Source of the DNA: Nostoc sp.
GTDB taxonomy: Bacteria; Cyanobacteriota; Cyanobacteriia; Cyanobacteriales; Nostocaceae
NCBI RefSeq assembly: GCF_036916735.1
Contig: NZ_JBALFV010000125.1
Location: 16,022 to 48,021, forward strand
Direction of reading: 5' to 3'
DNA: 32,000 bases
The notes under the pieces are model-generated. The model saw nothing but the letters and a program-made list of their open reading frames with translations. It was not told where the DNA came from and searched no databases. Positions 4,755 through 27,932 of this stretch are shown piece after piece. How positions within the stretch are numbered: the first letter of the stretch is position 1; each line of letters starts with the position of its first letter. Position numbers and translations under genes: made by a program.

Positions 4755-4778
4755 TGAATGCGTGAATGCGTGAATGCG
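4755..4778. repeat. Tandem octamer repeat (TGAATGCG x3)
   Basis: Read directly: tgaatgcg tgaatgcg tgaatgcg, in the intergenic region upstream of the acyltransferase gene, next to other dispersed-repeat-like sequence (gaacgcgagtgcgtcccgtaggcaagggg). Confidence 0.8.
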
Positions 4779-4849
4779 TGACTTCCCCGAACGCGAGTGC
4801 GTCCCGTAGGCAAGGGGCTGACCTTTACCAATCCTGTTAGAATGCATTG

Positions 4850-8561: not shown

Positions 8562-9242
8562 TCATGAAACACTAGGATCATCAGCAGTTTTGATCTCTCG
8601 CAAAATTCGTTCGACTTGATTAACTTTTTCATTTCTATTCTGTTCTTTGAAAATTTTTAAAGCTTTTTCTAAAGAAGCTAGCGCCTCATCTTTTTTATTT
8701 GTTTGCAACAATGCCAGTGCAAAATTAGTCAATGCTTCGGCATAATTAGGATTAATTTCCAGAGCTTTTTTATATTCAGTAATGGCTTCTTCCCAACTGC
8801 TTTGGCTAGCGTAAACCATACCCATCCCATTGTAAGCTAGAGCATATTTCGGTTTGAGGCGAATCGCTTCTTTATAGGCGGTAATTGCTTCTTCTGATTT
8901 CTTTTGTTGAAAAAGCGTATTTCCTAGTTGAAAGTGTCCGAAGGCATCTTCTGGGAATTTTTTAATGAGTTTACGTAAATTTTCTTCTGCGCCTTTGAAG
9001 TCTCCTTGATTATATAAAGCATTGGCTTGTTGCAGGAGCTGCGATCGCTCTGATGTATCTGTACCTGAAGATTGTGCTATTTTTTGTGGTTGTCTATGTG
9101 CAGACTGTTCTAGCGAATGTAAAGAAACTTGTCCAGGAACCGCTAACACTAATGGTGATAGACTAATTACAGTTATGATACTCAGCGTCATGCCGCTAAA
9201 AGATTGAACAAATGCTGATTTGGATTTGCGCTTCACCTTCAT
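8562..9242 (-). CDS. Secreted tetratricopeptide-repeat (TPR) protein
   Basis: 226 aa. N-terminal signal-like segment MKVKRKSKS...LSIITVISLSPLVLA, followed by about four 34-aa TPR units (e.g. AEENLRKLIKKFPEDAFGHFQLGNTL, AITAYKEAIRLKPKYALAYNGMGMVY, AITEYKKALEINPNYAEALTNFA). Confidence 0.8.
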   Translation of the reverse strand: MKVKRKSKSAFVQSFSGMTLSIITVISLSPLVLAVPGQVSLHSLEQSAHRQPQKIAQSSGTDTSERSQLLQQANALYNQGDFKGAEENLRKLIKKFPEDAFGHFQLGNTLFQQKKSEEAITAYKEAIRLKPKYALAYNGMGMVYASQSSWEEAITEYKKALEINPNYAEALTNFALALLQTNKKDEALASLEKALKIFKEQNRNEKVNQVERILREIKTADDPSVS

Positions 9243-9312: not shown

Positions 9313-9546
9313 TTAAGACACCTTCAAACGGTTATATTTTTTCATGTAACCTTTTCTTGTTGTCTTCACTTGTACAAAGAAATAAGGAACAGATTTACCA
9401 GCCCCTACCAACTCTACAATAAAATCAACATATTGCCATTTATCTCCTAAAAACTGCGGCTTGAAAATAGGGCCAGCATGAGAGTGAAATTCCGTCATTA
9501 ATACTGTAAAAATTGCTTCGCCTCTTTGCTTTAGTGCATCTCTCAT
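9313..9546 (-). CDS. DUF4365-like PD-(D/E)xK nuclease-domain fragment (probably truncated)
   Basis: 77 aa. GEAIF..L......DKWQYVDFIVEL.....YFFVQVKTT matches the D...D(F/G)..E......QVK(A/T)T core I associate with DUF4365. The ORF stops about 18 aa after the QVK motif, shorter than I would expect for the full domain. Confidence 0.4.
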   Translation of the reverse strand: MRDALKQRGEAIFTVLMTEFHSHAGPIFKPQFLGDKWQYVDFIVELVGAGKSVPYFFVQVKTTRKGYMKKYNRLKVS

Positions 9547-9680
9547 TTATAGACCTATTTTAATCGAGCCTGTTTAACAAAGGTAGGCTGTTTTGCCTGC
9601 CCTATATTATTAAGTATTGCTTTGTGTTAATTTGTTGTTAACAAACTCCTATTTTGAGAAGTTTGCATTGTTTATTGAAA

Positions 9681-9726
9681 GCGACTATCCCTCTCCACCC
9701 ACAAGGGAGTGGAGAGGGATAGTCGC
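9681..9726. repeat. Perfect 18-bp-stem palindromic element downstream of acs
   Basis: GCGACTATCCCTCTCCAC (9681-9698) and GTGGAGAGGGATAGTCGC (9709-9726) are exact reverse complements with a 10-nt loop. It is followed by GGGCATA tandem units and dispersed-repeat sequence up to about 9870. Confidence 0.8.
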
Positions 9727-9879
9727 CCCGTTGCTTGGGGCATAGGGCATAGGGCATTGGTAGGTTCTTCCCGATGCCCCATACTTCGACGCCGCCCCTC
9801 GGCTCCGCTCGGGCTGAACTCAGTACAAGTGTCCAATTCCCCATGCCCAAAAACTCCACATACAAGGAGATGGAGTTTT

Positions 9880-11853
9880 TTATACACTTTCCCGCAATTT
9901 ATCTAACACGCTTCTATCTTCTAATGTCGAAGTATCCCCAGATACCTCTTGCCCTGCGGCTAGATTCCGCAGCAAGCGCCGCATAATCTTACCTGATCGC
10001 GTTTTGGGCAAAGCGTCTGTAAAGCGGATTTCTCCCGGACGCGCGATCGCACCGATTTCTTTGACAACGTGCAGCTTGAGTTCTTTACTCAGTTCCTCAT
10101 TTGCCTGATAAGTACCTTCTAAAGTCACAAAAGCAACTACTTCTTCACCCTTAAGTTCATCGGGTTTACCTACTACCGCCGCTTCTGCAACTGCTGGATG
10201 CGAAACTAAAGCTGATTCTACTTCCATTGTACCAAGTCGGTGTCCTGATACATTAAGTACATCATCAACACGACCCATTACCCAGAAATAGCCGTCTTCA
10301 TCTTGTCTTGCACCATCACCAGCAAAGTAAATATAGTTACCATCTTTAGGAGGAATGTGTTCCCAGTAAGTGCGGCGGAAGCGTTCTGGATCGGCGTAGA
10401 CTGTCCGCATCATTCCTGGCCACGGATGACGCACTGCTAGATAACCGCCTTCTTTATTGGGTACAGTGTTTCCTTCTAAATCCACGACATCTGCAATAAT
10501 TCCAGGGAAGGGAAGAGTTGCTGAACCGGGTTTAGTGGGAATTGCCCCTGGTAGCGGTGTAATCATGATACCGCCGGTTTCCGTTTGCCACCAGGTATCC
10601 ACAATTGGACAGCGATCGCCACCAATTACTTTGTGATACCATATCCAAGCTTCCGGGTTAATCGGTTCGCCAACGGTTCCCAACAAACGCAACGAAGATA
10701 GATTTCGCGTGTTGGGATGTTGTTCGCCCATCTTAATAAATGCCCGAATTGCCGTAGGTGCAGTATAAAAAATATTAACACCGTATTTTTCAATCACATC
10801 CCATGTACAACCAGGATTAGAAGCGCGGGGCGCACCTTCATACATCACACTGGTTGCACCGTTGGAAAGGGGGCCGTAGACAATGTAGCTGTGTCCCGTA
10901 ATCCAACCTACATCTGCGGTACACCAATATACATCTGTGTCTTGCAGGTCGAATATCCACTTGGTGGTCATGTGGGTATACAAATTATAACCAGCAGTTG
11001 TATGCACTACGCCCTTCGGTTTGCCCGTGCTGCCAGAAGTGTAGAGAACAAACAGCATATCTTCGCTGTCCATTGGTTCGGCGGGACAATCTGCTGATAC
11101 TCCTTTTTGCAAATCATGCCACCAATGATCGCGTCCGCCTGACTGCATATAAGTTTCTTGTCCAGTGCGCTTGACAACTAGGACATTTTCTACACTGGGA
11201 ACAGCACCATCAGCTAAAGCTTTGTCTACCTGTTCCTTGAGAGGAACGATCGCATCTTTGCGCCAACCACCATCAGCCGTGATTACCAGTTTAGCTTGAG
11301 CATCAATTAAGCGATCGCGCAAAGCTTCGGCACTAAAACCACCAAATACCACACTGTGGGGTGCGCCAATTCTGGCACAGGCTAACATAGCGATCGCAGC
11401 TTCCGGAATCATCGGCATATAAATACCAACGCGATCGCCTTTTTGTACACCCAGTTGCTTCAATACATTGGCAAACTGACAAACTTCTCGGTGCAGTTGG
11501 GAATATGTCAGGGTACGGGAATCACCTGGTTCTCCTTCCCAAATCAAAGCTGCTTTATTTTTACGCCAGGTAGTGAGATGTCTGTCAAGGCAGTTGTAAG
11601 AAATATTAATCTTACCACCAACGAACCATTTAGCAAAAGGCGGTTGCCAGTCTAATACTGTATCCCATTTTTGGAACCATTCTAATTCTGTTGTCGCCAA
11701 ATCTGCCCAAAATTGCTGCGGATCGGCTTTGGCTTTGTCGTAGATACGCTGATAGTCATCTAAGCTTTGGATATGGGCGTTCTGCGAGAATTCTGAGCTA
11801 GGATGAAACAGCCGCTTCTCTTGTAGGATTGATTCTATAGTTGGTTGAGACAT
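9880..11853 (-). CDS. acs: Acetyl-coenzyme A synthetase (AMP-forming)
   Basis: 657 aa. Canonical Acs motifs are present: [54 protein letters not shown] and [12 protein letters not shown]. Confidence 0.97.
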
Positions 11854-12083: not shown

Positions 12084-12728
12084 ATGACGCTCACCGTCGA
12101 AGCTAGCAGCCTATCTCTCAACGATGTTCATCGGTTTCTCAAACTAGAAGAACTTTCCAATGGTTCATTCACAGACTTTTTAAGTCTAGAACCACTCTTT
12201 GAGTTTGAACAGCAGGATTTATTACGAATCAGAAACGACTTCCGTCGTTATTTAAGCGCAGGTAAAATTTCTGAAGGGTTGGTTAAATTTATAACAATTG
12301 CACCATTAATGCGATTAGCTGGATTTTACGATGTGCCGATTCGGTTGACAATGGAAGATAGCATTGCGATCGCAGTTGAAGATGAAGACAGAAGAATTAC
12401 TGGACGGATGGATATTTTAGCAATAAATAATCCTCAAAGTAATATTGCGCCGCCATTTTTGGTTCTAGTAATTGAAACGAAAAATAGTTCGGTCAATGTG
12501 ATTGAGGGTTTACCTCAATTAATCACTTATGCTTTTAAAAGTTTAGAGCAACAACCATCAGTTTGGGGTTTGGTAACTAATGGACAGCTTTATCAATTTG
12601 TTTATCTAAGACATGACAATCGGTCAACTTATGAGTTAATGCCATTATTAAATTTGAGTCAATCTCCAGATGCAATTGAGTTATTGCAAGTTTTCAAAGC
12701 CATTTGTAAGTTACCAAATTTTCAGTAA
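12084..12728 (+). CDS. Restriction-endonuclease-like protein (type I restriction enzyme HsdR N-terminal-like PD-(D/E)xK domain, standalone)
   Basis: 214 aa. GRMDILAI...LVLVIETKNS...GLPQLITYA...GLVTNGQLYQFVYL fits the D...(E)xK...Q...Y...TNG pattern of HSDR_N-type domains. Confidence 0.6.
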   Translation: MTLTVEASSLSLNDVHRFLKLEELSNGSFTDFLSLEPLFEFEQQDLLRIRNDFRRYLSAGKISEGLVKFITIAPLMRLAGFYDVPIRLTMEDSIAIAVEDEDRRITGRMDILAINNPQSNIAPPFLVLVIETKNSSVNVIEGLPQLITYAFKSLEQQPSVWGLVTNGQLYQFVYLRHDNRSTYELMPLLNLSQSPDAIELLQVFKAICKLPNFQ

Positions 12729-12750: not shown

Positions 12751-13479
12751 ATGTCTGATCCTGCTACTTTAGAAATCATCTCTGATGGTATTTCAGAAGA
12801 CGAAGTTATTTTTCCTCCTGGCGATATACTGAGTGACGAACCACCTTTGGAAAGTGACCTGCACCGTGACCAAATCGATTTGCTGATTCGCATCCTCAAA
12901 TTATGGTGGCGAGATAGGCAAGATTTTTATGCTTCTGGCAATTTGACGATTTACTACAGTTTTAACCAGAAAAAATCAGAATATTTCCGCGGCCCAGACT
13001 TTCTTGTAGTTTTGGGAACCCAGAAAAAAGACCCTAAAAGTTGGGTAGTTTGGCAAGAAGACGGCAAATATCCTAACCTGATTGTGGAAATTTTGTCAAG
13101 TTCAACGACAGCAGTTGATAAAGGTTTAAAAAAACAAGTTTACCAAGATACCTTCCGTACACCAGATTATTTCTGGTTTGATCCTGTAACAATGGAACTT
13201 CAGGGATTTCATTTAGTTGATGGGAAGTATCAAGAAATTCAATCAACCACTGATGGACGTTTGTGGAGTCAACAGTTAGAACTTTATTTGGGAGTTTATG
13301 AAGGTAAATTAAGATTCTTCACTACTGAAAATCAATTAATACTATCATCAGAGGAATTGGTTGAACAAGAACGTTTACGTGCCGAACAGGCAGAAGAACG
13401 CGCCGAACGAGCAGAGCAAGAAATTGCTCGACTGCGGGAGGCTTTACGTTTACAGGGCATCGACCTAGAGAATATTTGA
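12751..13479 (+). CDS. Uma2 family endonuclease (DUF820) with C-terminal coiled-coil tail
   Basis: 242 aa. ESDLHRDQIDLL..., GPDFLVVLG, YPNLIVEILSSSTTAVDKGLKKQVYQD..TPDYFWFDP are the characteristic Uma2 (PF05685) motifs. The C-terminus EQERLRAEQAEERAERAEQEIARLREAL is typical of cyanobacterial members. Confidence 0.85.
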   Translation: MSDPATLEIISDGISEDEVIFPPGDILSDEPPLESDLHRDQIDLLIRILKLWWRDRQDFYASGNLTIYYSFNQKKSEYFRGPDFLVVLGTQKKDPKSWVVWQEDGKYPNLIVEILSSSTTAVDKGLKKQVYQDTFRTPDYFWFDPVTMELQGFHLVDGKYQEIQSTTDGRLWSQQLELYLGVYEGKLRFFTTENQLILSSEELVEQERLRAEQAEERAERAEQEIARLREALRLQGIDLENI

Positions 13480-13571: not shown

Positions 13572-14261
13572 TTGCAAGCAACAGAAATTAAGGATCAGCT
13601 AAAGTCCCTTATCGAGCAAGCCTCCTCGATAGATCATAATTTAGCGAGAAGATTAGATGAAATCAATCGTTGGGTAAAAGACATCAAGCCAGGTTCTCTG
13701 ACTGCAAAACCTTTTGTCATTGCCTTTCTCTTAGAAGTAATTACGGATTCGACAATTTGGCTGATAATCAAATCCTTACCTTCAGAAGAAGAACAAAAAG
13801 CAAAATTCGAGATGATGACGCCGATTGAGAGATATTGGTATGGTTATCTATTTCCCAGATGGTTTAATGCAAGTGACTCCAAGTTTTATATTTGGAAGCA
13901 AAAATTGATGGCAGGCGAATTTAATCAAGTAGATGATGATATTATTAAATTAATAGCTCAAGATATTGTTCAGCGAGAAGGTAGTTTTTGGCAGCGTTAT
14001 ATAGCCGACCTTTCTATGGCAACAGATTTAATTGTTAGTCGTAACAATCAACCACTGTGTATTCAAATTACCAGTGTTAGTGAAGAACTTAATCACCAAA
14101 AGTACGAAGCTTGGCAAAATACACTGCGATCGTGGGAAATCGAGAGGGGGCTGTTCTTAAGTTACAATCCTAAGGATGCTAATTTTGTCAACCAATTAGT
14201 CAACGTGGCCCTGTATAACAGTGATTACCTTTCTGGTGGCAAATATTTAAAATTTTCGTGA
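13572..14261 (+). CDS. Hypothetical protein
   Basis: 229-aa ORF starting at TTG, with no in-frame ATG near the 5' end. Same strand and close spacing to neighbours. One HIP1 variant inside. No recognised family. Confidence 0.5.
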   Translation: MQATEIKDQLKSLIEQASSIDHNLARRLDEINRWVKDIKPGSLTAKPFVIAFLLEVITDSTIWLIIKSLPSEEEQKAKFEMMTPIERYWYGYLFPRWFNASDSKFYIWKQKLMAGEFNQVDDDIIKLIAQDIVQREGSFWQRYIADLSMATDLIVSRNNQPLCIQITSVSEELNHQKYEAWQNTLRSWEIERGLFLSYNPKDANFVNQLVNVALYNSDYLSGGKYLKFS

Positions 14262-14329
14262 ACTTTTCAGGAATTTGATATTTCAGATTTGTGTCTAGCC
14301 TATATACCTACGTGCTAATTAAAGCTTTT

Positions 14330-14770
14330 ATGGTTAATAAAAGAGAAACTCACTGCAACAATCAAGTAGATACATTTGCTGAAGCTTTAGCGACGGCGCG
14401 ACAAATGCAGCAGAACTGGCTTACTTATGGGATTGATTTTGTCAATATTTACGTTGAAGATGTCGAGGGAAACTGGCTAGAAACGTGGGGACATGATGAA
14501 ATATTAGGTAATTTTCAATTAGATACTATTAAAGAATTTTTGGTAAGTAATGATAGTGTAGCTGTTAGGGTAAGACAGCATTTAGGAGAGCGATCGCTGT
14601 TTGATTTTGCAGTAAAATTAGATGAATCTTGGAGAATTTCTGAGTTAGATGACAGGCTATCTGCTGTAAAAAATCTGCTAGCTGGTGAAGGAAATAGTGT
14701 TAATACAGATGATATCAGGTTATTGGATTTAGCAAATACTCTGGTAGGAAAGTTGGCAGAGATTTTATGA
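14330..14770 (+). CDS. Hypothetical protein
   Basis: The tracked ORF starts at GTG 14291; the first ATG (MVNKRETH...) is at 14330. It begins 29-68 nt after the previous ORF. Contains a HIP1 site (14590 region). No recognised family. Confidence 0.5.
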   Translation: MVNKRETHCNNQVDTFAEALATARQMQQNWLTYGIDFVNIYVEDVEGNWLETWGHDEILGNFQLDTIKEFLVSNDSVAVRVRQHLGERSLFDFAVKLDESWRISELDDRLSAVKNLLAGEGNSVNTDDIRLLDLANTLVGKLAEIL

Positions 14771-14876: not shown

Positions 14877-15128
14877 TTAATAATCTTTGAGATGTGCAAT
14901 CTTTATCACTGTTAGTAGTAAGGGTTGCTCCTGAATCTGGTAAATAATGCGGTATTTACCCAAACGAACCTTATACAAGCGTTCGGTGTCCTTCAATAAG
15001 TGAGCGGCTTCTGGACGTGGATTTAATGCTAGTTCCTCTAACTTTTGTGCTAATTGTTGCTGCATTACTGAGTCTAATTCTGTAAGTTTTTGAACAGATG
15101 AAGGTGTCAATGCTACTTGGTAGCTCAT
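14877..15128 (-). CDS. Type II toxin-antitoxin system RelE/ParE family toxin
   Basis: 83 aa. ...LYKVRLGKYRIIYQIQEQPLLLTVIKIAHLKDY is the characteristic C-terminal core of PF05016-type toxins. Its start overlaps the upstream antitoxin stop by 4 nt (ATGA). Confidence 0.85.
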   Translation of the reverse strand: MSYQVALTPSSVQKLTELDSVMQQQLAQKLEELALNPRPEAAHLLKDTERLYKVRLGKYRIIYQIQEQPLLLTVIKIAHLKDY

Positions 15129-15394
15129 ATCCCTAACTCCCTTTTAATTTCTTCAAAGGGTGTTGTCCCCAGCCCTGCAATTTCCTCTAATACTATATAA
15201 GCATCTCTTACATCAGCCTCATCTAACCTTGCTTCAATCAGCTCATGCATCTGCTCTGTTGAGGTAATTTCAGTTCCTGGCTCTTCTCTAAGTTTGTCCG
15301 TTAATGCATGAAAAGCTTCTTGATCGTCTCGATGTTCCAACACATAAGCTCTTAACTCTTGTCTGGTCATTGCTTGAAAATTTGCCTTAGTCAT
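15125..15394 (-). CDS. Putative cognate antitoxin (two-part: N-terminal MT.QELRAYVLEHRDDQEAF module plus C-terminal acidic toxin-binding-like tail)
   Basis: 89 aa. Position immediately upstream of, and translationally coupled to, the RelE/ParE toxin. The acidic C-terminal segment DEADVRDAYIVLEEIAG...FEEIKRELGI resembles antitoxin partners of cyanobacterial RelE/ParE toxins. Confidence 0.65.
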   Translation of the reverse strand: MTKANFQAMTRQELRAYVLEHRDDQEAFHALTDKLREEPGTEITSTEQMHELIEARLDEADVRDAYIVLEEIAGLGTTPFEEIKRELGI

Positions 15395-15689: not shown

Positions 15690-16026
15690 ACATTTAAGCA
15701 TTTCTTGCAAATGTTAAAGCAAGAGTTACTCAGGTTGAAGCATGTATAAGAAAGGCTTAAGTTTTTCTGAAAAGATTAAATACTTTCTTATAAATGTTGA
15801 AGCAAGAGTTACTCAGGTTGAAGCATGTATAAGAAAGATTTAAGTATTTCTTACAAAGATTAAATACTTTCTTATAAATGTTGAAGCAAGAGTTACTCAG
15901 GTTGAAGCATGTATAAGAAAGGTTTAAGTATTTCTAACAAAGATTAAATATTTTCTTATAAATGTTGAAGCAATAGTTACTCAGGTTGAAACTTTGGTTA
16001 ATAACGTTGAAAGTTTTTTGTTAAAG
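15690..16026. repeat. Tandem array of about four copies of an 84-bp unit built from four 21-bp sub-units (21-bp phasing)
   Basis: GTT(G/A)AAG starts at 15713, 15734, 15796, 15817, 15880, 15901, 15964, 15985 and 16006 (spacings 21, 62, 21, 63, 21, 63, 21, 21). Unit 15796-15879 = gttgaagcaagagttactcag | gttgaagcatgtataagaaag | atttaagtatttcttacaaag | attaaatactttcttataaat. It ends about 110 nt upstream of the 16136 ORF. Confidence 0.9.
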
Positions 16027-16135: not shown

Positions 16136-16552
16136 TTGGAAGCAATTACAGCTAGTGCGATCGCAACCCTCGTTTTTAACAAAGCATTTGAGACAACTAT
16201 CGAGAAATTCACTGAAGCAGCCCTGGTTAAAATTGCTGAGTTGCGAAAGAAGATTTGGGAGAAGTTAAAAGGAAATTCTCAAGCCGCAACTGCCTTCGTT
16301 GAGGCTGACAAAGGCTCGAAACCAGATGTAGACAAGGTTGCTGCTTACTTGCAGAGAATTTTACGTGACGAACCGGAGTTTGCTAAAGAAGTACAAACAC
16401 TGGCTCGTGAAATTCAGGCTGGTAAGATAGTAGACAATAGCAATATGACTCAAATCAACCATGACAATGCCAAAGGATGGCAAACTAAAGTTGAGGGTGG
16501 AACAGTTTATCAAGGCGAGATTAACATTCATCATGCACCCCCCAATTCTTGA
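16136..16552 (+). CDS. Small helical effector-like protein (Bell-domain-like) with C-terminal amyloid-signalling-type motif shared with the downstream NLR
   Basis: 138 aa with a TTG start preceded by AAGGTAGGA. The N-terminus is hydrophobic/helical (MEAITASAIATLVFNKAFETTIEKF...). C-terminal residues 107-132, INHDNAKGWQTKVEGGTVYQGEINIH, repeat at the N-terminus of the next ORF. The stop lies 11 nt before the next start. Confidence 0.7.
   Translation: MEAITASAIATLVFNKAFETTIEKFTEAALVKIAELRKKIWEKLKGNSQAATAFVEADKGSKPDVDKVAAYLQRILRDEPEFAKEVQTLAREIQAGKIVDNSNMTQINHDNAKGWQTKVEGGTVYQGEINIHHAPPNS
16454..16531 (+). other. C-terminal copy of the shared ~26-aa motif (candidate bacterial amyloid signalling sequence)
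   Basis: INHDNAKGWQTKVEGGTVYQGEINIH versus SNQDNAKGWQTQVEGGTAYVGDISIY in the next gene: 18 of 26 positions identical by my count. Confidence 0.7.
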
Positions 16553-16563
16553 ATTGAGCCATC

Positions 16564-19500
16564 ATGAACCAAAGCAACCAGGATAATGCCAAGGGATGGC
16601 AAACTCAGGTTGAGGGTGGAACAGCTTATGTCGGCGATATTAGTATCTACAATTCCCCTACTAGGCAGTTACACTCATCTCCTCCAAATAATATTCCTTA
16701 TCGGGGTGTCGCCAACTTTGTCGGGCGGGATGAGAAACTTGCCCAAGTGCATGAAAAGTTGCTGCAAAACGACAACGCAGCAATTTTGGCTGTGACTGGT
16801 ATGGGGGGAATCGGTAAAACTGAACTGGCGACACAATACGCACAGCGCTACAAAGTCAATTATCCTGGTGGGCTTTGCTGGTTAGATGCCAGAAAACTAG
16901 ATTTAGCAGCAGAGATTGTCGAGTTTGCTAAGTTTTACATGAAACTGGAAGTACCGCAAACCTTATTGACTTCCCAGGAACAAGCAAAATGGTGCTGGCA
17001 TAATTGGCAACCACAAACAGGACTAGTCTTGGTAGTATTGGACAATGTTGACGATGTAACTAACTGGAAAAATTCTCACCAAGTACTGCCAACAGATAAC
17101 CGCTTTCGTATATTGATGACAACTCGGTTGCGAAATCTCGGTTCAACAGTTCAACAGATAACTTTGGATGAACTCTCATCAAACGATGCTTTGAAATTGT
17201 TGACAGCTTTGTTGGGTGAGAATGATCGGCGAGTGCAACGGGAACCACAAACGGCAGCAAATTTATGTAAATGGCTGGGATATCTGCCTTTAGGTTTGCA
17301 ATTAGTCGGCGCGTATTTGGCAGAAGATCCAAATTTGTCTTTGACAGAGATTTTACAGCGATTGCCAGCCCAGCAACAATCTCAATTGGAAGCCGTATTT
17401 GAATTAAGCTGGCAACAACTCGATTATATGACAAAGTATGTCGGTGAGTTGTTGAGTTTATTTGCCTCAGATATGATTCCTTGGCAAATAGTTGAATCTG
17501 TCAGTCAGCAGCTAAATTGGGCAAAGGCAGATGTTGACGAGGCGAGAAAGCAACTTTATCAGCGTCATTTAATTCAAAGCGTAGCAGAAAGAGAAAGTTG
17601 CTATAAAATTCATCCTTTAATTAGGGAGTTTTTGCAGGGGAAATTAGTAGGGTTAAACACAGCCGATGACCTCAAAAAAGCCTTTGCCGCAGCATTAGTA
17701 GAAATTGCTCAGAAAATACCTGAATCTCTCACCCTTGAGGATATCAAATCAGTGCAGCTGGCAATTCCACACTTGACTGAGGTGGCACAAAATCTGATTG
17801 ATGTTGTGGAGGATGAAAATTTATTTTGGGTTTTCACTGGCTTGGGCAGATTTTATCAAGGACAGGGTTTGTATACCCTAGCAGCACCTTGGTATGAGCA
17901 AGGATTATCAACGGTGCAAACCCGTTTGGGAGAGGAACATCGCCATGTTGCCACCAGCCTGAACAACCTGGCATTACTCTACAATTCTCAAGGACGCTAC
18001 GACCAAGCCGAACCCCTGTTTCTGCAAGCTTTAGAACTGAGAAAACGCCTGCTGGGAGATGCACATCCCGATGTTGCCGCCAGCCTGAACAACCTGGCAT
18101 TACTCTACAATTCTCAAGGACGCTACGACCAAGCCGAACCCCTGTTTCTGCAAGCTTTAGAACTGAGTAAACGCCTGCTGGGAGAGGAACATCGCCATGT
18201 TGCCACCAGCCTGAACAACCTGGCATCACTCTACAATTCTCAAGGACGCTACGACCAAGCCGAACCCCTGTTTCTGCAAGCTTTAGAACTGAGAAAACGC
18301 CTGCTGGGAGATGCACATCCCGATGTTGCCGCCAGCCTGAACAACCTGGCAAATCTCTACGATTTTCAAGGACGCTACGACCAAGCCGAACCCCTGTTTC
18401 TGCAAGCTTTAGAACTTTATAAACGCCTGCTGGGAGAAGCACATCCCGATGTTGCCACCAGCCTGAACTTGCTGGCAAATCTCTACAATTCTCAAGGACG
18501 CTACGACCAAGCCGAACCCCTGTTGCTGCAAGCTTTAGAACTTTATAAACGCCTGCTGGGAGATGCACATCCCGATGTTGCCGCCAGCCTGAACAACCTG
18601 GCAAATCTCTACGATTTTCAAGGACGCTACGACCAAGCCGAACCCCTGTTTCTGCAAGCTTTAGAACTTTATAAACGCCTGCTGGGAGAAGCACATCCCG
18701 ATGTTGCCACCAGCCTGAACTTGCTGGCAAATCTCTACAATTCTCAAGGACGCTACGACCAAGCCGAACCCCTGTTGCTGCAAGCTTTAGAACTGAGTAA
18801 ACGCCTGCTGGGAGAAGAAAATCCCTCAGTTGCCACCAGCCTGAACAACCTGGCATCACTCTACTATTCTCAAGGACGCTACGACCAAGCCGAACCCCTG
18901 TTTCTGCAAGCTTTAGAACTTTATAAACGCCTGCTGGGAGAAGCACATCCCCATGTTGCCACCAGCCTGAGCAACCTGGCAAATCTCTACAATTCTCAAG
19001 GACGCTACGACCAAGCCGAACCCCTGTATCTGCAAGCTTTAGAACTTTATAAACGCCTGCTGGGAGAAGAACATCCCGATTTTGCCATCAGCCTGAACAA
19101 CCTGGCATTACTCTACAATTCTCAAGGACGCTACGACCAAGCCGAACCCCTGTATCTGCAAGCTTTAGAACTGAGTAAACGCCTGCTGGGAGAAGCACAT
19201 CCCCATGTTGCCAGCAGCCTGAACAACTTGGCATTACTCTACGATTCTCAAGGACGCTACGACCAAGCCGAACCCCTGTTACTGCAAGCTTTAGAACTGA
19301 GAAAACGCCTGCTGGGAGAAGCACATCCCGATTTTGCCACTAGCCTGAACAACCTGGCATTACTCTACAATTCTCAAGGACGCTACGACCAAGCTGAACC
19401 CCTGTATCTGCAAGCTTTAGAACTTAATAAACGCCTGCTGGGAGATGCACATCCCGATTTTGCCACCAGCCTGAACAACCTGGCATTACTCTACAAATCT

Positions 19501-19827
19501 CAAGGACGCTACGACCAAGCCGAACCCCTGTATCTGCAAGCTTTAGAACTGAGTAAACGCCTGCTGGGAGAAGCACATCCCTCTGTTGCCACCAGCCTGA
19601 ACAACCTGGCATTACTCTACGATTCTCAAGGACGCTACGACCAAGCCGAACCCCTGTTTCTGCAAGCTTTAGAAATTCGTCAGCAGGTGTTTGGGGTGAA
19701 TCATCCCAATACGGTTACTGTTCGGCAAAATCTGGAAAATCTTCAAGCTCAAAAGAGTGCTAACCGTAAAGTTAAAAATAATACTAATAATTCCTTGTGG
19801 AAGAAGTTTTTAGGGTTATTTGAGTGA
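16564..19827 (+). CDS. NLR-like STAND NTPase: N-terminal ~30-aa signalling motif + NB-ARC domain + 14 near-identical 42-aa TPR repeats
   Basis: 1087 aa. NB-ARC motifs: P-loop GMGGIGKT (aa 79-86, nt 16798-16821), Walker B LVLVVLDNVDD (aa 154-164), RILMTTR (aa 182-188), GLPL-type LPLGLQLVG (aa 241-249). The C-terminal half is TPR_10/TPR_12-type (kinesin-light-chain-like) repeats. No enzymatic N-terminal effector domain; only the short motif is present. Confidence 0.9.
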   Translation: MNQSNQDNAKGWQTQVEGGTAYVGDISIYNSPTRQLHSSPPNNIPYRGVANFVGRDEKLAQVHEKLLQNDNAAILAVTGMGGIGKTELATQYAQRYKVNYPGGLCWLDARKLDLAAEIVEFAKFYMKLEVPQTLLTSQEQAKWCWHNWQPQTGLVLVVLDNVDDVTNWKNSHQVLPTDNRFRILMTTRLRNLGSTVQQITLDELSSNDALKLLTALLGENDRRVQREPQTAANLCKWLGYLPLGLQLVGAYLAEDPNLSLTEILQRLPAQQQSQLEAVFELSWQQLDYMTKYVGELLSLFASDMIPWQIVESVSQQLNWAKADVDEARKQLYQRHLIQSVAERESCYKIHPLIREFLQGKLVGLNTADDLKKAFAAALVEIAQKIPESLTLEDIKSVQLAIPHLTEVAQNLIDVVEDENLFWVFTGLGRFYQGQGLYTLAAPWYEQGLSTVQTRLGEEHRHVATSLNNLALLYNSQGRYDQAEPLFLQALELRKRLLGDAHPDVAASLNNLALLYNSQGRYDQAEPLFLQALELSKRLLGEEHRHVATSLNNLASLYNSQGRYDQAEPLFLQALELRKRLLGDAHPDVAASLNNLANLYDFQGRYDQAEPLFLQALELYKRLLGEAHPDVATSLNLLANLYNSQGRYDQAEPLLLQALELYKRLLGDAHPDVAASLNNLANLYDFQGRYDQAEPLFLQALELYKRLLGEAHPDVATSLNLLANLYNSQGRYDQAEPLLLQALELSKRLLGEENPSVATSLNNLASLYYSQGRYDQAEPLFLQALELYKRLLGEAHPHVATSLSNLANLYNSQGRYDQAEPLYLQALELYKRLLGEEHPDFAISLNNLALLYNSQGRYDQAEPLYLQALELSKRLLGEAHPHVASSLNNLALLYDSQGRYDQAEPLLLQALELRKRLLGEAHPDFATSLNNLALLYNSQGRYDQAEPLYLQALELNKRLLGDAHPDFATSLNNLALLYKSQGRYDQAEPLYLQALELSKRLLGEAHPSVATSLNNLALLYDSQGRYDQAEPLFLQALEIRQQVFGVNHPNTVTVRQNLENLQAQKSANRKVKNNTNNSLWKKFLGLFE
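16573..16650 (+). other. N-terminal copy of the shared ~26-aa motif on the NLR
   Basis: SNQDNAKGWQTQVEGGTAYVGDISIY (aa 4-29), matching the C-terminus of the upstream ORF. Confidence 0.7.
17926..19689 (+). repeat. Fourteen tandem 126-bp (42-aa) coding repeats, near-identical at nucleotide level
   Basis: Consensus LGEAHPDVATSLNNLALLYNSQGRYDQAEPLFLQALELxKRL. The first unit starts at L455 (nt 17926) and the 14th ends at nt 19689. Includes a perfect ~248-bp tandem duplicate (18295-18542 = 18547-18794). Confidence 0.95.
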
Positions 19828-20841: not shown

Positions 20842-21135
20842 TTAATCAGAGAATAGCGCCTCTAAATCGCGGTAGTCACTTACTATCCGCACAACTTCAA
20901 TCCCCTCTGCAATTTGGCGATAAAATATCAAATAATCATCAACTGGAAAGCTTCGTAACGCAGGTAAAAGTTCATCCCGTCTGCGTCCCATACTAGGAAA
21001 CTGTGCTAAAGTATCCAACTTTTGAGTGATGATTGTGAATAATCTATCTGCAATATCTGGATTTCCAGCAAATAGGTAATCGTTAATTTATTGTAAGTCT
21101 TCGGTAGCTTGAAGCGATAGAAAATATAAACTCAT
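20842..21135 (-). pseudogene. parE: ParE family toxin gene inactivated by a premature TAA at codon 16
   Basis: Minus-strand translation: MSLYFLSLQATEDLQ*INDYLFAGNPDIADRLFTIITQKLDTLAQFPSMGRRRDELLPALRSFPVDDYLIFYRQIAEGIEVVRIVSDYRDLEALFSD*. The stop is at 21088-21090. The ATG overlaps the parD stop (TAATG). 294 nt = 98 codons in a single frame. Confidence 0.8.
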
Positions 21136-21404
21136 TATTGTGCCTGAGTCTTTCTCAAAGCTTGGTTCTTTTGACGCAGTTGCTCGATTACTTCTTTACC
21201 GTCGAGTCGTTCTTGGCGATCAAGTTGCTCAACCCCAATCATAATTTCTCTTTGCAGTTCCTCAAACCGACCCTTGTAAATACGTTCCCGTTCCTCCAAC
21301 AGCCTAACACCTGCAAGAATCACTTCCTCTGATGAGGTGTACTTACCGCTTACAACTTGACTTTGAATGAACTGCTCAAGCTCGGTAGTTAAGGAAATAT
21401 TCAT
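21135..21404 (-). CDS. parD: ParD-type (ribbon-helix-helix) type II antitoxin
   Basis: 89 aa. MNISLTTELEQFIQSQVVSGKYTSSEEVILAGVRLLEERE is the characteristic ParD/CC2985-family N-terminus. Located immediately upstream of the parE remnant. Confidence 0.85.
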   Translation of the reverse strand: MNISLTTELEQFIQSQVVSGKYTSSEEVILAGVRLLEERERIYKGRFEELQREIMIGVEQLDRQERLDGKEVIEQLRQKNQALRKTQAQ

Positions 21405-21676: not shown

Positions 21677-22399
21677 ATGCTAGACCGAATTTTTGATTAC
21701 CTCGACTTTCATTTCAGCATTGAAGCCCCTATAGTTCTGCTGATCCTGGTGCTTTTAGAGGCGCTCTTATCTGCCGACAATGCGATCGCTCTGGCTGCGA
21801 TCGCTAGGGGGCTGGAAGACGAAGAACTTGAGCGTAAAGGACTCAACTTTGGTTTAGTCGTTGCTTATGTGCTGCGAATCACCCTGATTCTCACTGCCAC
21901 TTGGGTGCAACAATTCTGGCAATTTGAATTATTGGGTGCTGCTTATCTGCTGTGGTTGGTATTCCAACACTTTACCTCTCAACAAAGTGAAGACGATCAC
22001 TATCACGGACCGCGTTTTAATTCATTGTTGCAAGCGATACCTGTGATTGCCTTTACAGATTTGGCATTTTCTTTAGATAGCGTGACAACAGCGATCGCAG
22101 TTTCTCAAGAAAAATGGCTAGTGCTGACGGGTGCAACAATTGGTATTATTACGCTGCGATTCATGGCAGGATTGTTTATTCGTTGGCTAGACGAATATGA
22201 AAACCTAGAAGACGCAGGCTATGTAACTGTAGCGTTGGTAGGCTTGCGCTTGTTATTGAAAGTGGTAAACGATAGTTTAGTTCCACCAGAATGGATCATG
22301 ATTGCTGCCATCTTCCTAATTTTAGGCTGGGGATTTTCCAAGCGTGTTGGTACTGAATTACCCCAAGTAGAACCAGAGAAGAGCGAAGTCTCGAAGTAA
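21677..22399 (+). CDS. terC: TerC family integral membrane protein
   Basis: 240 aa. EALLSADNAIALAAIARGL and the second half-repeat DLAFSLDSVTTAIAVS are the duplicated TerC (PF03741) signature segments. Multi-pass hydrophobic profile. Confidence 0.85.
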   Translation: MLDRIFDYLDFHFSIEAPIVLLILVLLEALLSADNAIALAAIARGLEDEELERKGLNFGLVVAYVLRITLILTATWVQQFWQFELLGAAYLLWLVFQHFTSQQSEDDHYHGPRFNSLLQAIPVIAFTDLAFSLDSVTTAIAVSQEKWLVLTGATIGIITLRFMAGLFIRWLDEYENLEDAGYVTVALVGLRLLLKVVNDSLVPPEWIMIAAIFLILGWGFSKRVGTELPQVEPEKSEVSK

Positions 22400-22481
22400 G
22401 TGAAAAGTTACGAGTTAGGAGTGAGAAGTTAGGAGTGAGGAGTTAAGAGTTATTATTTATGAATTTTTAACTCCTAACTTT

Positions 22482-25245: not shown

Positions 25246-25357
25246 GAGTTAGGAGTGAAGAGTTACGAATAATGTTAAGAGTTAGAAGTGAAGAGGAAAA
25301 CACAAACTTCTAACTCCTAACTCCTAACTCCTAACTCCAAACTTCTAACTCCTAACT
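25241..25357. repeat. STRR region: TTAGGAG units followed by inverted CTCCTAA units between convergent genes
   Basis: gttaggagttaggagtgaag... then ...cttctaactcctaactcctaactcctaactccaaacttctaactcctaac. It starts within the speA stop codon and ends at the stop of the minus-strand gene. Confidence 0.85.
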
Positions 25358-27886: not shown

Positions 27887-27932
27887 TTTTTGAATTTTGA
27901 ATTTTGAATTTTGAATTTTGAATTTTGAATTG
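27887..27932. repeat. Heptamer tandem repeat (GAATTTT/TTTGAAT, about 6 copies)
   Basis: tttttgaattttgaattttgaattttgaattttgaattttgaattga read directly. It sits between scpA and the AI-2E permease gene, next to a dispersed-repeat block at 27685-27850. Confidence 0.9.

Follow-up and report, generated by a model that had tools for sequence, protein, structure and literature searches.

A 32,000-nt stretch of Nostoc sp. DNA (contig NZ_JBALFV010000125.1, positions 16,022 to 48,021) was analyzed; it is termed the window, and all positions given below are counted within it. [quoted passage not shown] This array is with good probability the ligand-sensing domain of the receptor, of the repeat class with high internal conservation (HIC), evolving by concerted evolution together with diversification, in a protein that would signal as a pair with a Bell-like protein encoded directly upstream. 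The domain architecture, the repeat statistics, the family-wide variability by position, the coincidence with ligand contacts of kinesin light chain 1 (KLC1), the differences between orthologs and the shared motif pair support this. A rapidly evolving recognition surface had been proposed before in a reading made from the letters of the window (the sequence-only reading). This proposal is supported, and none of the three outcomes that would speak against it (scattered or core-facing variable positions, synonymous variation as high as non-synonymous variation, identical repeat sets in orthologs) was found.

Repeat array and its variable positions

The NB-ARC domain of the receptor was recognized with PF00931 (72.8 bits at a cut-off of 23.5, E = 3.3e-20, aa 56-267), and the TPR domain with the Pfam models TPR_12 (E = 3.5e-255) and TPR_10 (E = 7.4e-211), which matched in 14 stretches. 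The translation contains an intact P-loop (GMGGIGKT) and Walker B motif (LVVLDNVDD) as well as TTR and GLPLGL-type motifs. Two features used to define NLR-like STAND proteins are thus present, i.e., an NB-ARC domain above the Pfam gathering threshold and a C-terminal TPR domain. A total of 989 NLR homologs was obtained, chiefly from filamentous cyanobacteria. The closest ones were all from Nostoc, with 83-94% identity across the 454 non-repeat amino acids, and more distant ones were found in other filamentous cyanobacteria. In 72 of the 120 homologs listed, adjacent units were at least 80% identical. A look-up of the exact NLR product gave no match.

Tandem Repeats Finder reported a period of 126 at 17927-19674, with 13.9 copies, 92% matches, 0% indels and a score of 2852. 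Translation from 17926 in the frame of the open reading frame (ORF) 16564-19827 yielded 14 consecutive units of 42 amino acids (126 nt each) without indels, followed by a degenerate cap unit. The 14 near-identical TPR units that the sequence-only reading had placed at 17926-19689 were hereby confirmed to the exact coordinate. Including a degenerate TPR ahead of the array and a cap helix behind it, the whole TPR domain comprises 15 repeats plus cap. Pairwise identity among the 14 units was 91.1% on average at the nucleotide level (range 85.7-100%) and 83.9% at the amino acid level. NLR repeats are assigned to the HIC class at a T-REKS-type similarity (Psim) of at least 0.70, i.e., with units about 80-100% identical; the array exceeds this threshold with a Psim of 0.893.

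Amino acid substitutions between units were located at unit positions 3 (E/D), 4 (A/E), 6 (P/R), 7 (D/H/S), 8 (V/F), 10 (T/A/S/I), 14 (N/L), 17 (L/N/S), 20 (N/D/Y/K), 21 (S/F), 32 (F/Y/L) and 39 (Y/R/S/N). All substitutions listed earlier were recovered; that list had omitted singleton changes at positions 5 and 13 and the divergent end of the final unit, which reads EIRQQV instead of ELxKRL as in the other units. No amino acid change was found in any of the 14 units at positions 22-31 and 33-37. The 36 segregating nucleotide sites were concentrated in 21 codons compared to 26.8 expected under scatter (P = 0.00075), in line with the earlier statement that variation is confined to few positions. 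Codons with multi-base differences were found at position 14 (AAC/TTG) and position 17 (TTA/TCA/AAT), the adjoining codons being unchanged; AAC/TTG and TTA/AAT differ at all three bases.

An antisense ORF of 382 codons (17834-18982, - strand) extends over nine units and is itself periodic. It was rejected as a gene, since a periodic absence of stop codons in repeated sequence is the best explanation for it.

A scan of species-representative genomes provided 19 Nostoc loci with conserved acs-to-speA synteny; the comparison is one between species, not strains. Arrays of the same unit type were present in 15 of the syntenic loci and comprised 2-14 units each. No unit identical to one of the window's units was found in these arrays, the best match having 96% identity, and hence orthologs do not share an identical repeat set. 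Polymorphism of repeat number and content, as expected for HIC repeats, was therefore seen among species-level orthologs, many of them from short-read assemblies. The 82 unique units pooled from the 15 arrays had an entropy of at least 1 bit at positions 4, 7, 10, 14, 17, 20, 32 and 39. In 59 distant NB-ARC-TPR proteins with 47-62% identity in the nucleotide-binding oligomerization domain (NOD), variability within each protein peaked at positions 7, 10, 17, 20 and 39 (0.55-0.74), followed by 21 and 32.

Several of the orthologous loci were irregular. Six contigs (L002, L003, L006, L014, L017 and L022) stop inside or at the start of the array, indicating that short-read assemblers fail there, and the family's proteins in databases are often truncated and labeled 'partial'. 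According to the literature, long reads are required for HIC domains. Two orthologous contigs contained runs of N, and one had a frameshift. In Nostoc sp. CCCryo 231-06 (L019, locus 55-1456), the segment corresponding to 17192-19636 is missing, and the middle of the NB-ARC domain is joined to the last unit; this deletion destroys the NLR gene and leaves the flanks in place. In L018 (locus 9483-10221) the frame ends in the third unit (549 aa) and unit-like DNA continues behind it, due to a frameshift, a pseudogene or an assembly error. The array of L005 (locus 9483-10600) consists of four much more diverged units followed by four identical ones.

The ratio of non-synonymous to synonymous differences per site (pN/pS), determined by pairwise counting, was 1.72 for the whole array with a bootstrap interval of 0.85-3.77, synonymous variation being the lower of the two. 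At seven positions defined from the distant homologs, and hence independently of the window, pN/pS was 3.04, compared to 0.86 at the other 35 positions. A value of 0.32-0.45 was obtained for the NOD region (aa 1-454) between orthologs. Positive diversifying selection at few positions is indicated by these values, but not formally proven.

Synonymous divergence (pS) among units was 0.058, less than half of the 0.12-0.16 found between orthologous NOD regions. As all orthologs have arrays, the units must have been homogenized since the species split. Units 3 and 5 have the same sequence (100% identity), and the pairs 0/2 and 4/6 match at 98%, which indicates duplications of two units at a time. 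The four-gamete test was failed by 68 of 210 informative site pairs, and a minimum number of recombination events (Rm) of at least 4 was calculated. Across up to 15 genomes, essentially a single codon was used for each amino acid state at the hypervariable positions (for example, TTA for Leu at position 17 in 20 of 21 cases, and GGA for Gly in 14 of 14). This points to reshuffling of an inherited set of variants rather than to fresh mutation. The low pS between units and the mosaic combinations of variants fit concerted evolution with shuffling.

The identity of about 91% would be maintained, and the number and order of units altered, as the 126-nt units undergo gene conversion and recombine unequally with one another. 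A small set of residues would be held diverse along the concave groove, on the exposed face of helix A and the adjoining helix B end and loop, and each array would represent a distinct combination from a limited alphabet of groove residues. A combinatorial recognition code, in which this inherited alphabet with one codon per residue across Nostoc is re-dealt among 2-14 cassettes by intragenic recombination and the receptor differs by lineage or even by filament or cell, appears improbable to us at present. If it did exist, a multicellular bacterium would be diversifying an immune sensor by recombination, in a quasi-adaptive manner.

Predicted ligand groove and upstream Bell-like gene

Residues 413-1087 were modeled with AlphaFold2 as a helix-turn-helix solenoid, with a predicted local distance difference test (pLDDT) score of 89.6 and a predicted TM-score (pTM) of 0.84. 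In each unit, helix A comprises positions 6-21 and helix B positions 25-42, and positions 2-5 and 22-24 are loops. When helix A is drawn as a helical wheel, the conserved packing residues A9, L12, L15/A16 and Y19 lie on one side, and positions 6, 7, 10, 13, 14, 17, 20 and 21 make up the opposite face. Seven of the eight positions on this exposed face vary in at least two units; of the ten positions that helix B exposes, on a mostly charged face, none does (Fisher test, about 2.5e-4, computed by hand). Exposure alone thus fails to explain the pattern. The variable positions were found to cluster on the exposed face of helix A, mostly off the packing core, with positions 8 and 32 as exceptions.

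The closest solved structures by sequence were the TPR domains of kinesin light chains (E = 2e-57), and the best local fold match was KLC1-TPR with a bound JIP1/TorsinA peptide (TM-score 0.78, rmsd about 3.6 Å, 42% identity). In TPR domains, the A helices form the lining of the concave groove. KLC1 residues were transferred to the 42-residue repeat by setting Ile209 as position 2. The published contact residues used (R266, N259/301/343, N302/344/386, V305, L347, L348, K309, N351, Y313, R327 and K340) map to unit positions 10, 13, 14, 17, 18, 20, 21, 25 and 39, and all residue identities check. This peptide-contact set includes five of the eight positions with the highest variability, namely 10, 14, 17, 20 and 39 (hypergeometric P = 0.006). 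Position 13, equivalent to the backbone-binding Asn of KLC, is conserved in the Nostoc array too. The hypervariable positions are predicted to line the ligand-binding concave groove, formed by the exposed face of helix A and the adjacent helix B end and loop.

Directly upstream of the NLR gene, a small gene for a Bell-like protein was identified that the sequence-only reading had missed and that explains how the receptor probably signals. The gap of 11 nt on the same strand, the TTG start and the length of 138 aa are conserved in 18 Nostoc loci. The N-terminus of the product (MEAITASAIATLVF) is a hydrophobic helix with Glu at residue 2. In the AlphaFold2 model, helices extend over aa 6-95, and aa 100-138 (pLDDT <50) form a disordered tail carrying a motif of about 24 aa that is also present at the N-terminus of the receptor. 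The two copies, DNAKGWQTKVEGGTVYQGEINIHH and DNAKGWQTQVEGGTAYVGDISIYN, have 17 of 24 residues in common in the window and 12-20 of 24 across 18 orthologous loci. Their composition is rich in G, N, Q, V and I, without P or L, as described for bacterial amyloid signaling sequence (BASS) motifs. The motif strings were not found in the literature searched. No locus-specific covariation of the two copies was detected, with 17.4 of 24 identities within a locus and 17.1 of 24 across loci.

Two of the features by which Bell/BASS pairs are identified were present: the genes are collinear with a very short spacer, and the C-terminus of the effector and the N-terminus of the NLR have a conserved motif of 15 aa or more in common. 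The descriptive features of Bell proteins were found as well (138 aa, N-terminal helix, acidic residue 2, helical bundle), in a protein with neither a Pfam match nor a significant fold match in the PDB. The assignment as Bell-like is putative, and the layout of upstream gene and NLR gene resembles that of a bacterial amyloid-signaling pair. Among cyanobacteria, 164 Bell-like homologs of 129-187 aa were obtained, with a common N-terminus and a C-terminal motif. A protein 100% identical to the Bell-like product is recorded from a metagenome-assembled genome (MAG) of Nostoc. Some family members (e.g., P0202, P0210, P0217, P0220, P0230 and P0233) have the same N-terminal helical domain and quite different C-terminal motifs, for example VQNVYGGEAYQNND...PIFQG; the effector domain seems to stay constant and the signaling motif to be replaceable.

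An intergenic tandem repeat (15701-15990, 3.5 copies, 94% matches) precedes the Bell-like gene by about 150 bp; its units of 84 bp each contain GTTGAAGCA twice. Alignments with orthologs begin at differing points inside the repeat; its copy number therefore probably varies. It may be an array of regulatory sites.

The proposed mode of action was modeled on NWD2/HET-S of Podospora and Bab/Agp of E. coli. Binding of a ligand in the TPR groove would release the NB-ARC switch, and subsequent oligomerization would gather the N-terminal motifs of about 24 aa into an amyloid fold. This fold would template the same-type C-terminal motif of the co-transcribed 138-aa Bell-like protein, the N-terminal hydrophobic helix of which would attack the membrane and cause cell death. 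By analogy with these systems, from which ligand binding, oligomerization, amyloid templating and membrane attack are transferred, the trigger could be a phage, another mobile element or non-self filaments.

Comparison with known systems and alternative explanations

In fungal HIC NLRs of the NB-ARC/TPR type, the number of repeats is polymorphic and sites under positive selection are located on the concave face (Dyrka et al. 2014, PMC4986451; PMC13449251). The Nostoc protein resembles those of Podospora anserina (Pa_2_10340, PaPnt1, HET-Z) in having 42-residue TPR units, more than 80% identical to one another, behind an NB-ARC domain, in repeat-number polymorphism and repeat shuffling, and in few hypervariable positions, which were placed on the concave side by a KLC2-based model in fungi and by KLC1 mapping in Nostoc. 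It differs in being bacterial and part of an operon-like pair. Moreover, species-level orthologs, mostly from short reads, were compared in Nostoc, whereas strains with long reads were compared in fungi. The analogy to fungal NLRs drawn in the sequence-only reading is apt, and the literature has already extended it to bacteria. Bacterial NLRs with WD or TPR repeats of 80-90% internal identity have been described, and the same diversification was suggested for them (Dyrka et al. 2020, bioRxiv 10.1101/2020.01.06.895854). A survey from 2026 reported HIC NLRs in bacteria, including indications for Cyanobacteria. Repeats of the HIC kind in cyanobacterial NLRs are thus already in print, and the Nostoc array is a clear further example and not a new mechanism. 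A site-level mapping of prokaryotic HIC TPR variability onto the ligand groove or onto KLC contacts was not found in the literature searched; here, the concerted evolution and diversification of HIC repeats worked out in fungi is extended to a prokaryote at site resolution.

With the described Bell/BASS-NLR pairs (bioRxiv 10.1101/2020.01.06.895854), the Nostoc locus shares a small effector gene (120-140 aa) directly upstream of a collinear NB-ARC/TPR gene, an N-terminal hydrophobic effector helix with an acidic residue at position 2-3, a motif of about 25 aa rich in G, N, Q, V and I that is common to the effector C-terminus and the NLR N-terminus, and a cyanobacterium of the Nostocaceae as host. 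It differs in that the amyloid behavior of its motif is putative. The Bab/Agp pair of E. coli was experimentally characterized as an antiphage abortive-infection system (bioRxiv 10.1101/2024.11.07.622273). There, too, the genes are adjacent, and a TPR sensor was shown to activate a small Bell-related membrane-targeting protein via a shared terminal amyloid motif. In contrast to the Nostoc receptor, Agp has the architecture TPR-GreA/B-C-PIN and no NB-ARC domain; the motif belongs to family BASS11, Bab has 109 aa, and the pair is located in a prophage defense island, not at a conserved chromosomal site as in Nostoc. The TPR domains of KLC1 and KLC2 (PDB 6FUZ, 6FV0, 7AI4) share the 42-residue repeat and its signature LNNLA...Y..QG.Y..AEPL...AL.I, and they bind peptide ligands in the concave groove via the equivalents of positions 10, 13, 14, 17, 18, 20, 21, 25 and 39. 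However, KLC has six diverged repeats of fixed specificity and no NTPase domain, whereas the Nostoc protein carries 14 near-identical repeats with variable groove residues on a STAND ATPase.

NLR-like proteins are abundant in filamentous cyanobacteria, and we know of no trigger for any of them. A single syntenic Bell-NLR pair across Nostoc offers a tractable entry point. Between genomes, almost the only differences in the sensor are the number of units and about eight groove positions per unit, leaving a small set of residues for specificity swaps, and the orthologs represent a natural allele series for screening against cyanophages or non-self filaments.

Some results weigh against a diversifying sensor with a Bell-like partner. 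Pairwise counting of pN/pS ignores recombination and the non-independence of units, and the interval for the whole array includes 1. The placement of the variable positions on the concave face is predicted from helix periodicity and KLC1 homology. Two variable positions, 8 (V/F/I) and 32 (F/Y/L, on the helix B face bearing small packing alanines), are probably core-facing; both changes are conservative. The window and most orthologs are from metagenome-assembled or short-read genomes, and the number and order of units may be mis-assembled in some. PADLOC returned a generic TPR match only and did not recognize the pair as a known defense system. For the Bell-like protein, neither a Pfam family (40 family members gave noise) nor a PADLOC match was obtained, and a Foldseek search of its model against the PDB gave no match with E < 2.7.

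The interval including 1 would also agree with concerted evolution under relaxed constraint only, in which the variable positions are simply the tolerant ones, with no selection for diversity and no rapidly evolving surface. The mostly solvent-exposed location of the variable positions and the many states that are single-step NAT codons would fit this explanation, too. It is nevertheless judged rather unlikely, because the equally exposed polar face of helix B (26, 27, 29, 30, 33, 34, 37, 40 and 41) is invariant in 14 units while the helix A face varies, and because pN/pS at the independently chosen positions is about 3 and thus above the neutral value of 1. Furthermore, two or three bases are exchanged in codons 14 and 17 and none in the codons flanking them, and the same positions vary in the 59 distant homologs and match the KLC1 ligand contacts. 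Targeted hypermutation by a diversity-generating retroelement (DGR) or a similar enzymatic mutator is hardly credible. DGRs reportedly diversify putative sensors in multicellular bacteria, and the Asn (AAY) consensus codons at positions 14, 17 and 20 are typical DGR targets. However, neither a reverse transcriptase nor a template repeat was found in the 32-kb window or the orthologous loci, and no silent donor cassettes outside the gene were revealed when the window and 22 loci were searched by blastn with the unit consensus. The majority base was A at 11 of the 36 variable sites compared to 28% A overall, i.e., without adenine bias, and the changes at positions 7, 10, 32 and 39 fall on non-A bases. 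Variant states are common codon for codon between genomes, which argues for inheritance and not for de novo mutation. With neither a reverse transcriptase nor a template copy in the window and these loci, and no adenine bias, the DGR explanation is largely refuted.

That the array is an assembly artefact, a chimera of reads from several strains or paralogs in a metagenome, has little probability. It would be in keeping with the record of the identical Bell-like protein from a Nostoc MAG, with a 2-kb short-read (Logan) contig of the same sequence that breaks 16 codons into the first unit, and with the six orthologous contigs ending in the array, the two with runs of N and the frameshifted one. 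Against this, the frame is intact and free of indels through all 14 units, and the same unit type and variable positions recur independently in 15 Nostoc loci and 59 other proteins, some of them on megabase-scale contigs. About 11 of 126 bases differ between units, so that all units but 3-6 can be placed uniquely. A similarly low probability was assigned to a housekeeping scaffold or regulatory STAND protein (MalT/AfsR-like), the TPRs of which bind a constant cellular partner without any role in conflict. The locus is chromosomal, syntenic in 18 Nostoc genomes and not on an obvious mobile island, and PADLOC assigned no defense family, as might be expected of such a protein. Yet a constant partner disfavors a groove that differs in every species and unit counts of 2-14, one genome (L019) has deleted most of the gene, the NOD pN/pS of 0.32-0.45 is high for a housekeeping gene, and the receptor is paired with a Bell-like protein via a shared terminal motif. 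The favored explanation thus remains a ligand-sensing HIC array in a Bell-paired receptor.

Coordinates and neighboring genes

Table 1. Coordinates of the receptor gene, the Bell-like gene and their parts in the window.
Feature	Position	Strand	Basis or remark
Putative Bell-like effector gene, 138 aa, TTG start	16136..16552	+	ORF, homologs, AlphaFold2 model
Effector-side copy of the shared motif of about 24 aa (DNAKGWQTKVEGGTVYQGEINIHH), putative amyloid signaling sequence	16463..16534	+	
NLR-like STAND gene, 1087 aa: N-terminal motif, NB-ARC, helical linker, TPR array, cap	16564..19827	+	ORF and Pfam
NLR-side copy of the shared motif (DNAKGWQTQVEGGTAYVGDISIYN, aa 7-30)	16582..16653	+	
NB-ARC nucleotide-binding/oligomerization domain (aa 56-267)	16729..17364	+	PF00931
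Degenerate first TPR (aa 413-454)	17800..17925	+	Modeled by AlphaFold2 as two helices, residues 2-21 and 25-43 of the model
TPR array, 14 near-identical 42-aa units (42PR, KLC-type)	17926..19689	+	Hypervariable unit positions 4, 7, 10, 14, 17, 20, (21), 32, 39
C-terminal cap: diverged half-repeat (FGVNHPNTVTVRQNLENLQ...) and basic tail	19690..19824	+	Kept in orthologs with complete gene

The chromosomal locus is located between acs and terC/ndk/speA, is syntenic in 18 Nostoc genomes and is not part of an obvious mobile island. Besides acs, terC and ndk, the window contains genes for arginine decarboxylase and scpA as well as small toxin-antitoxin modules. A pair of genes for a ParE-family toxin and a DUF6887 protein is encoded at 14877-15394 (- strand), and a lone ParD-type antitoxin at 21135-21404 (- strand), on the opposite side of the NLR pair. 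The segment 14781-15784 failed to align in many orthologous Nostoc loci, suggesting that the toxin-antitoxin module is present only in some genomes. Some 3 kb upstream of the NLR pair, there are two adjoining small genes for putative endonucleases of the PD-(D/E)xK/Uma2 type (12084-12728 and 12751-13479); behind them are the ORFs 13572-14261 and 14291-14770, for which no family match was obtained.

Short heptamer and octamer tandem repeats, of a kind common in heterocystous cyanobacteria, are present in intergenic regions (4755-4781, 22399-22452, 25305-25357 and 27888-27931). A separate protein of 226 aa (8562-9242, - strand) contains canonical 34-residue TPRs with ordinary divergence, in contrast to the near-identical 42-residue units of the receptor.

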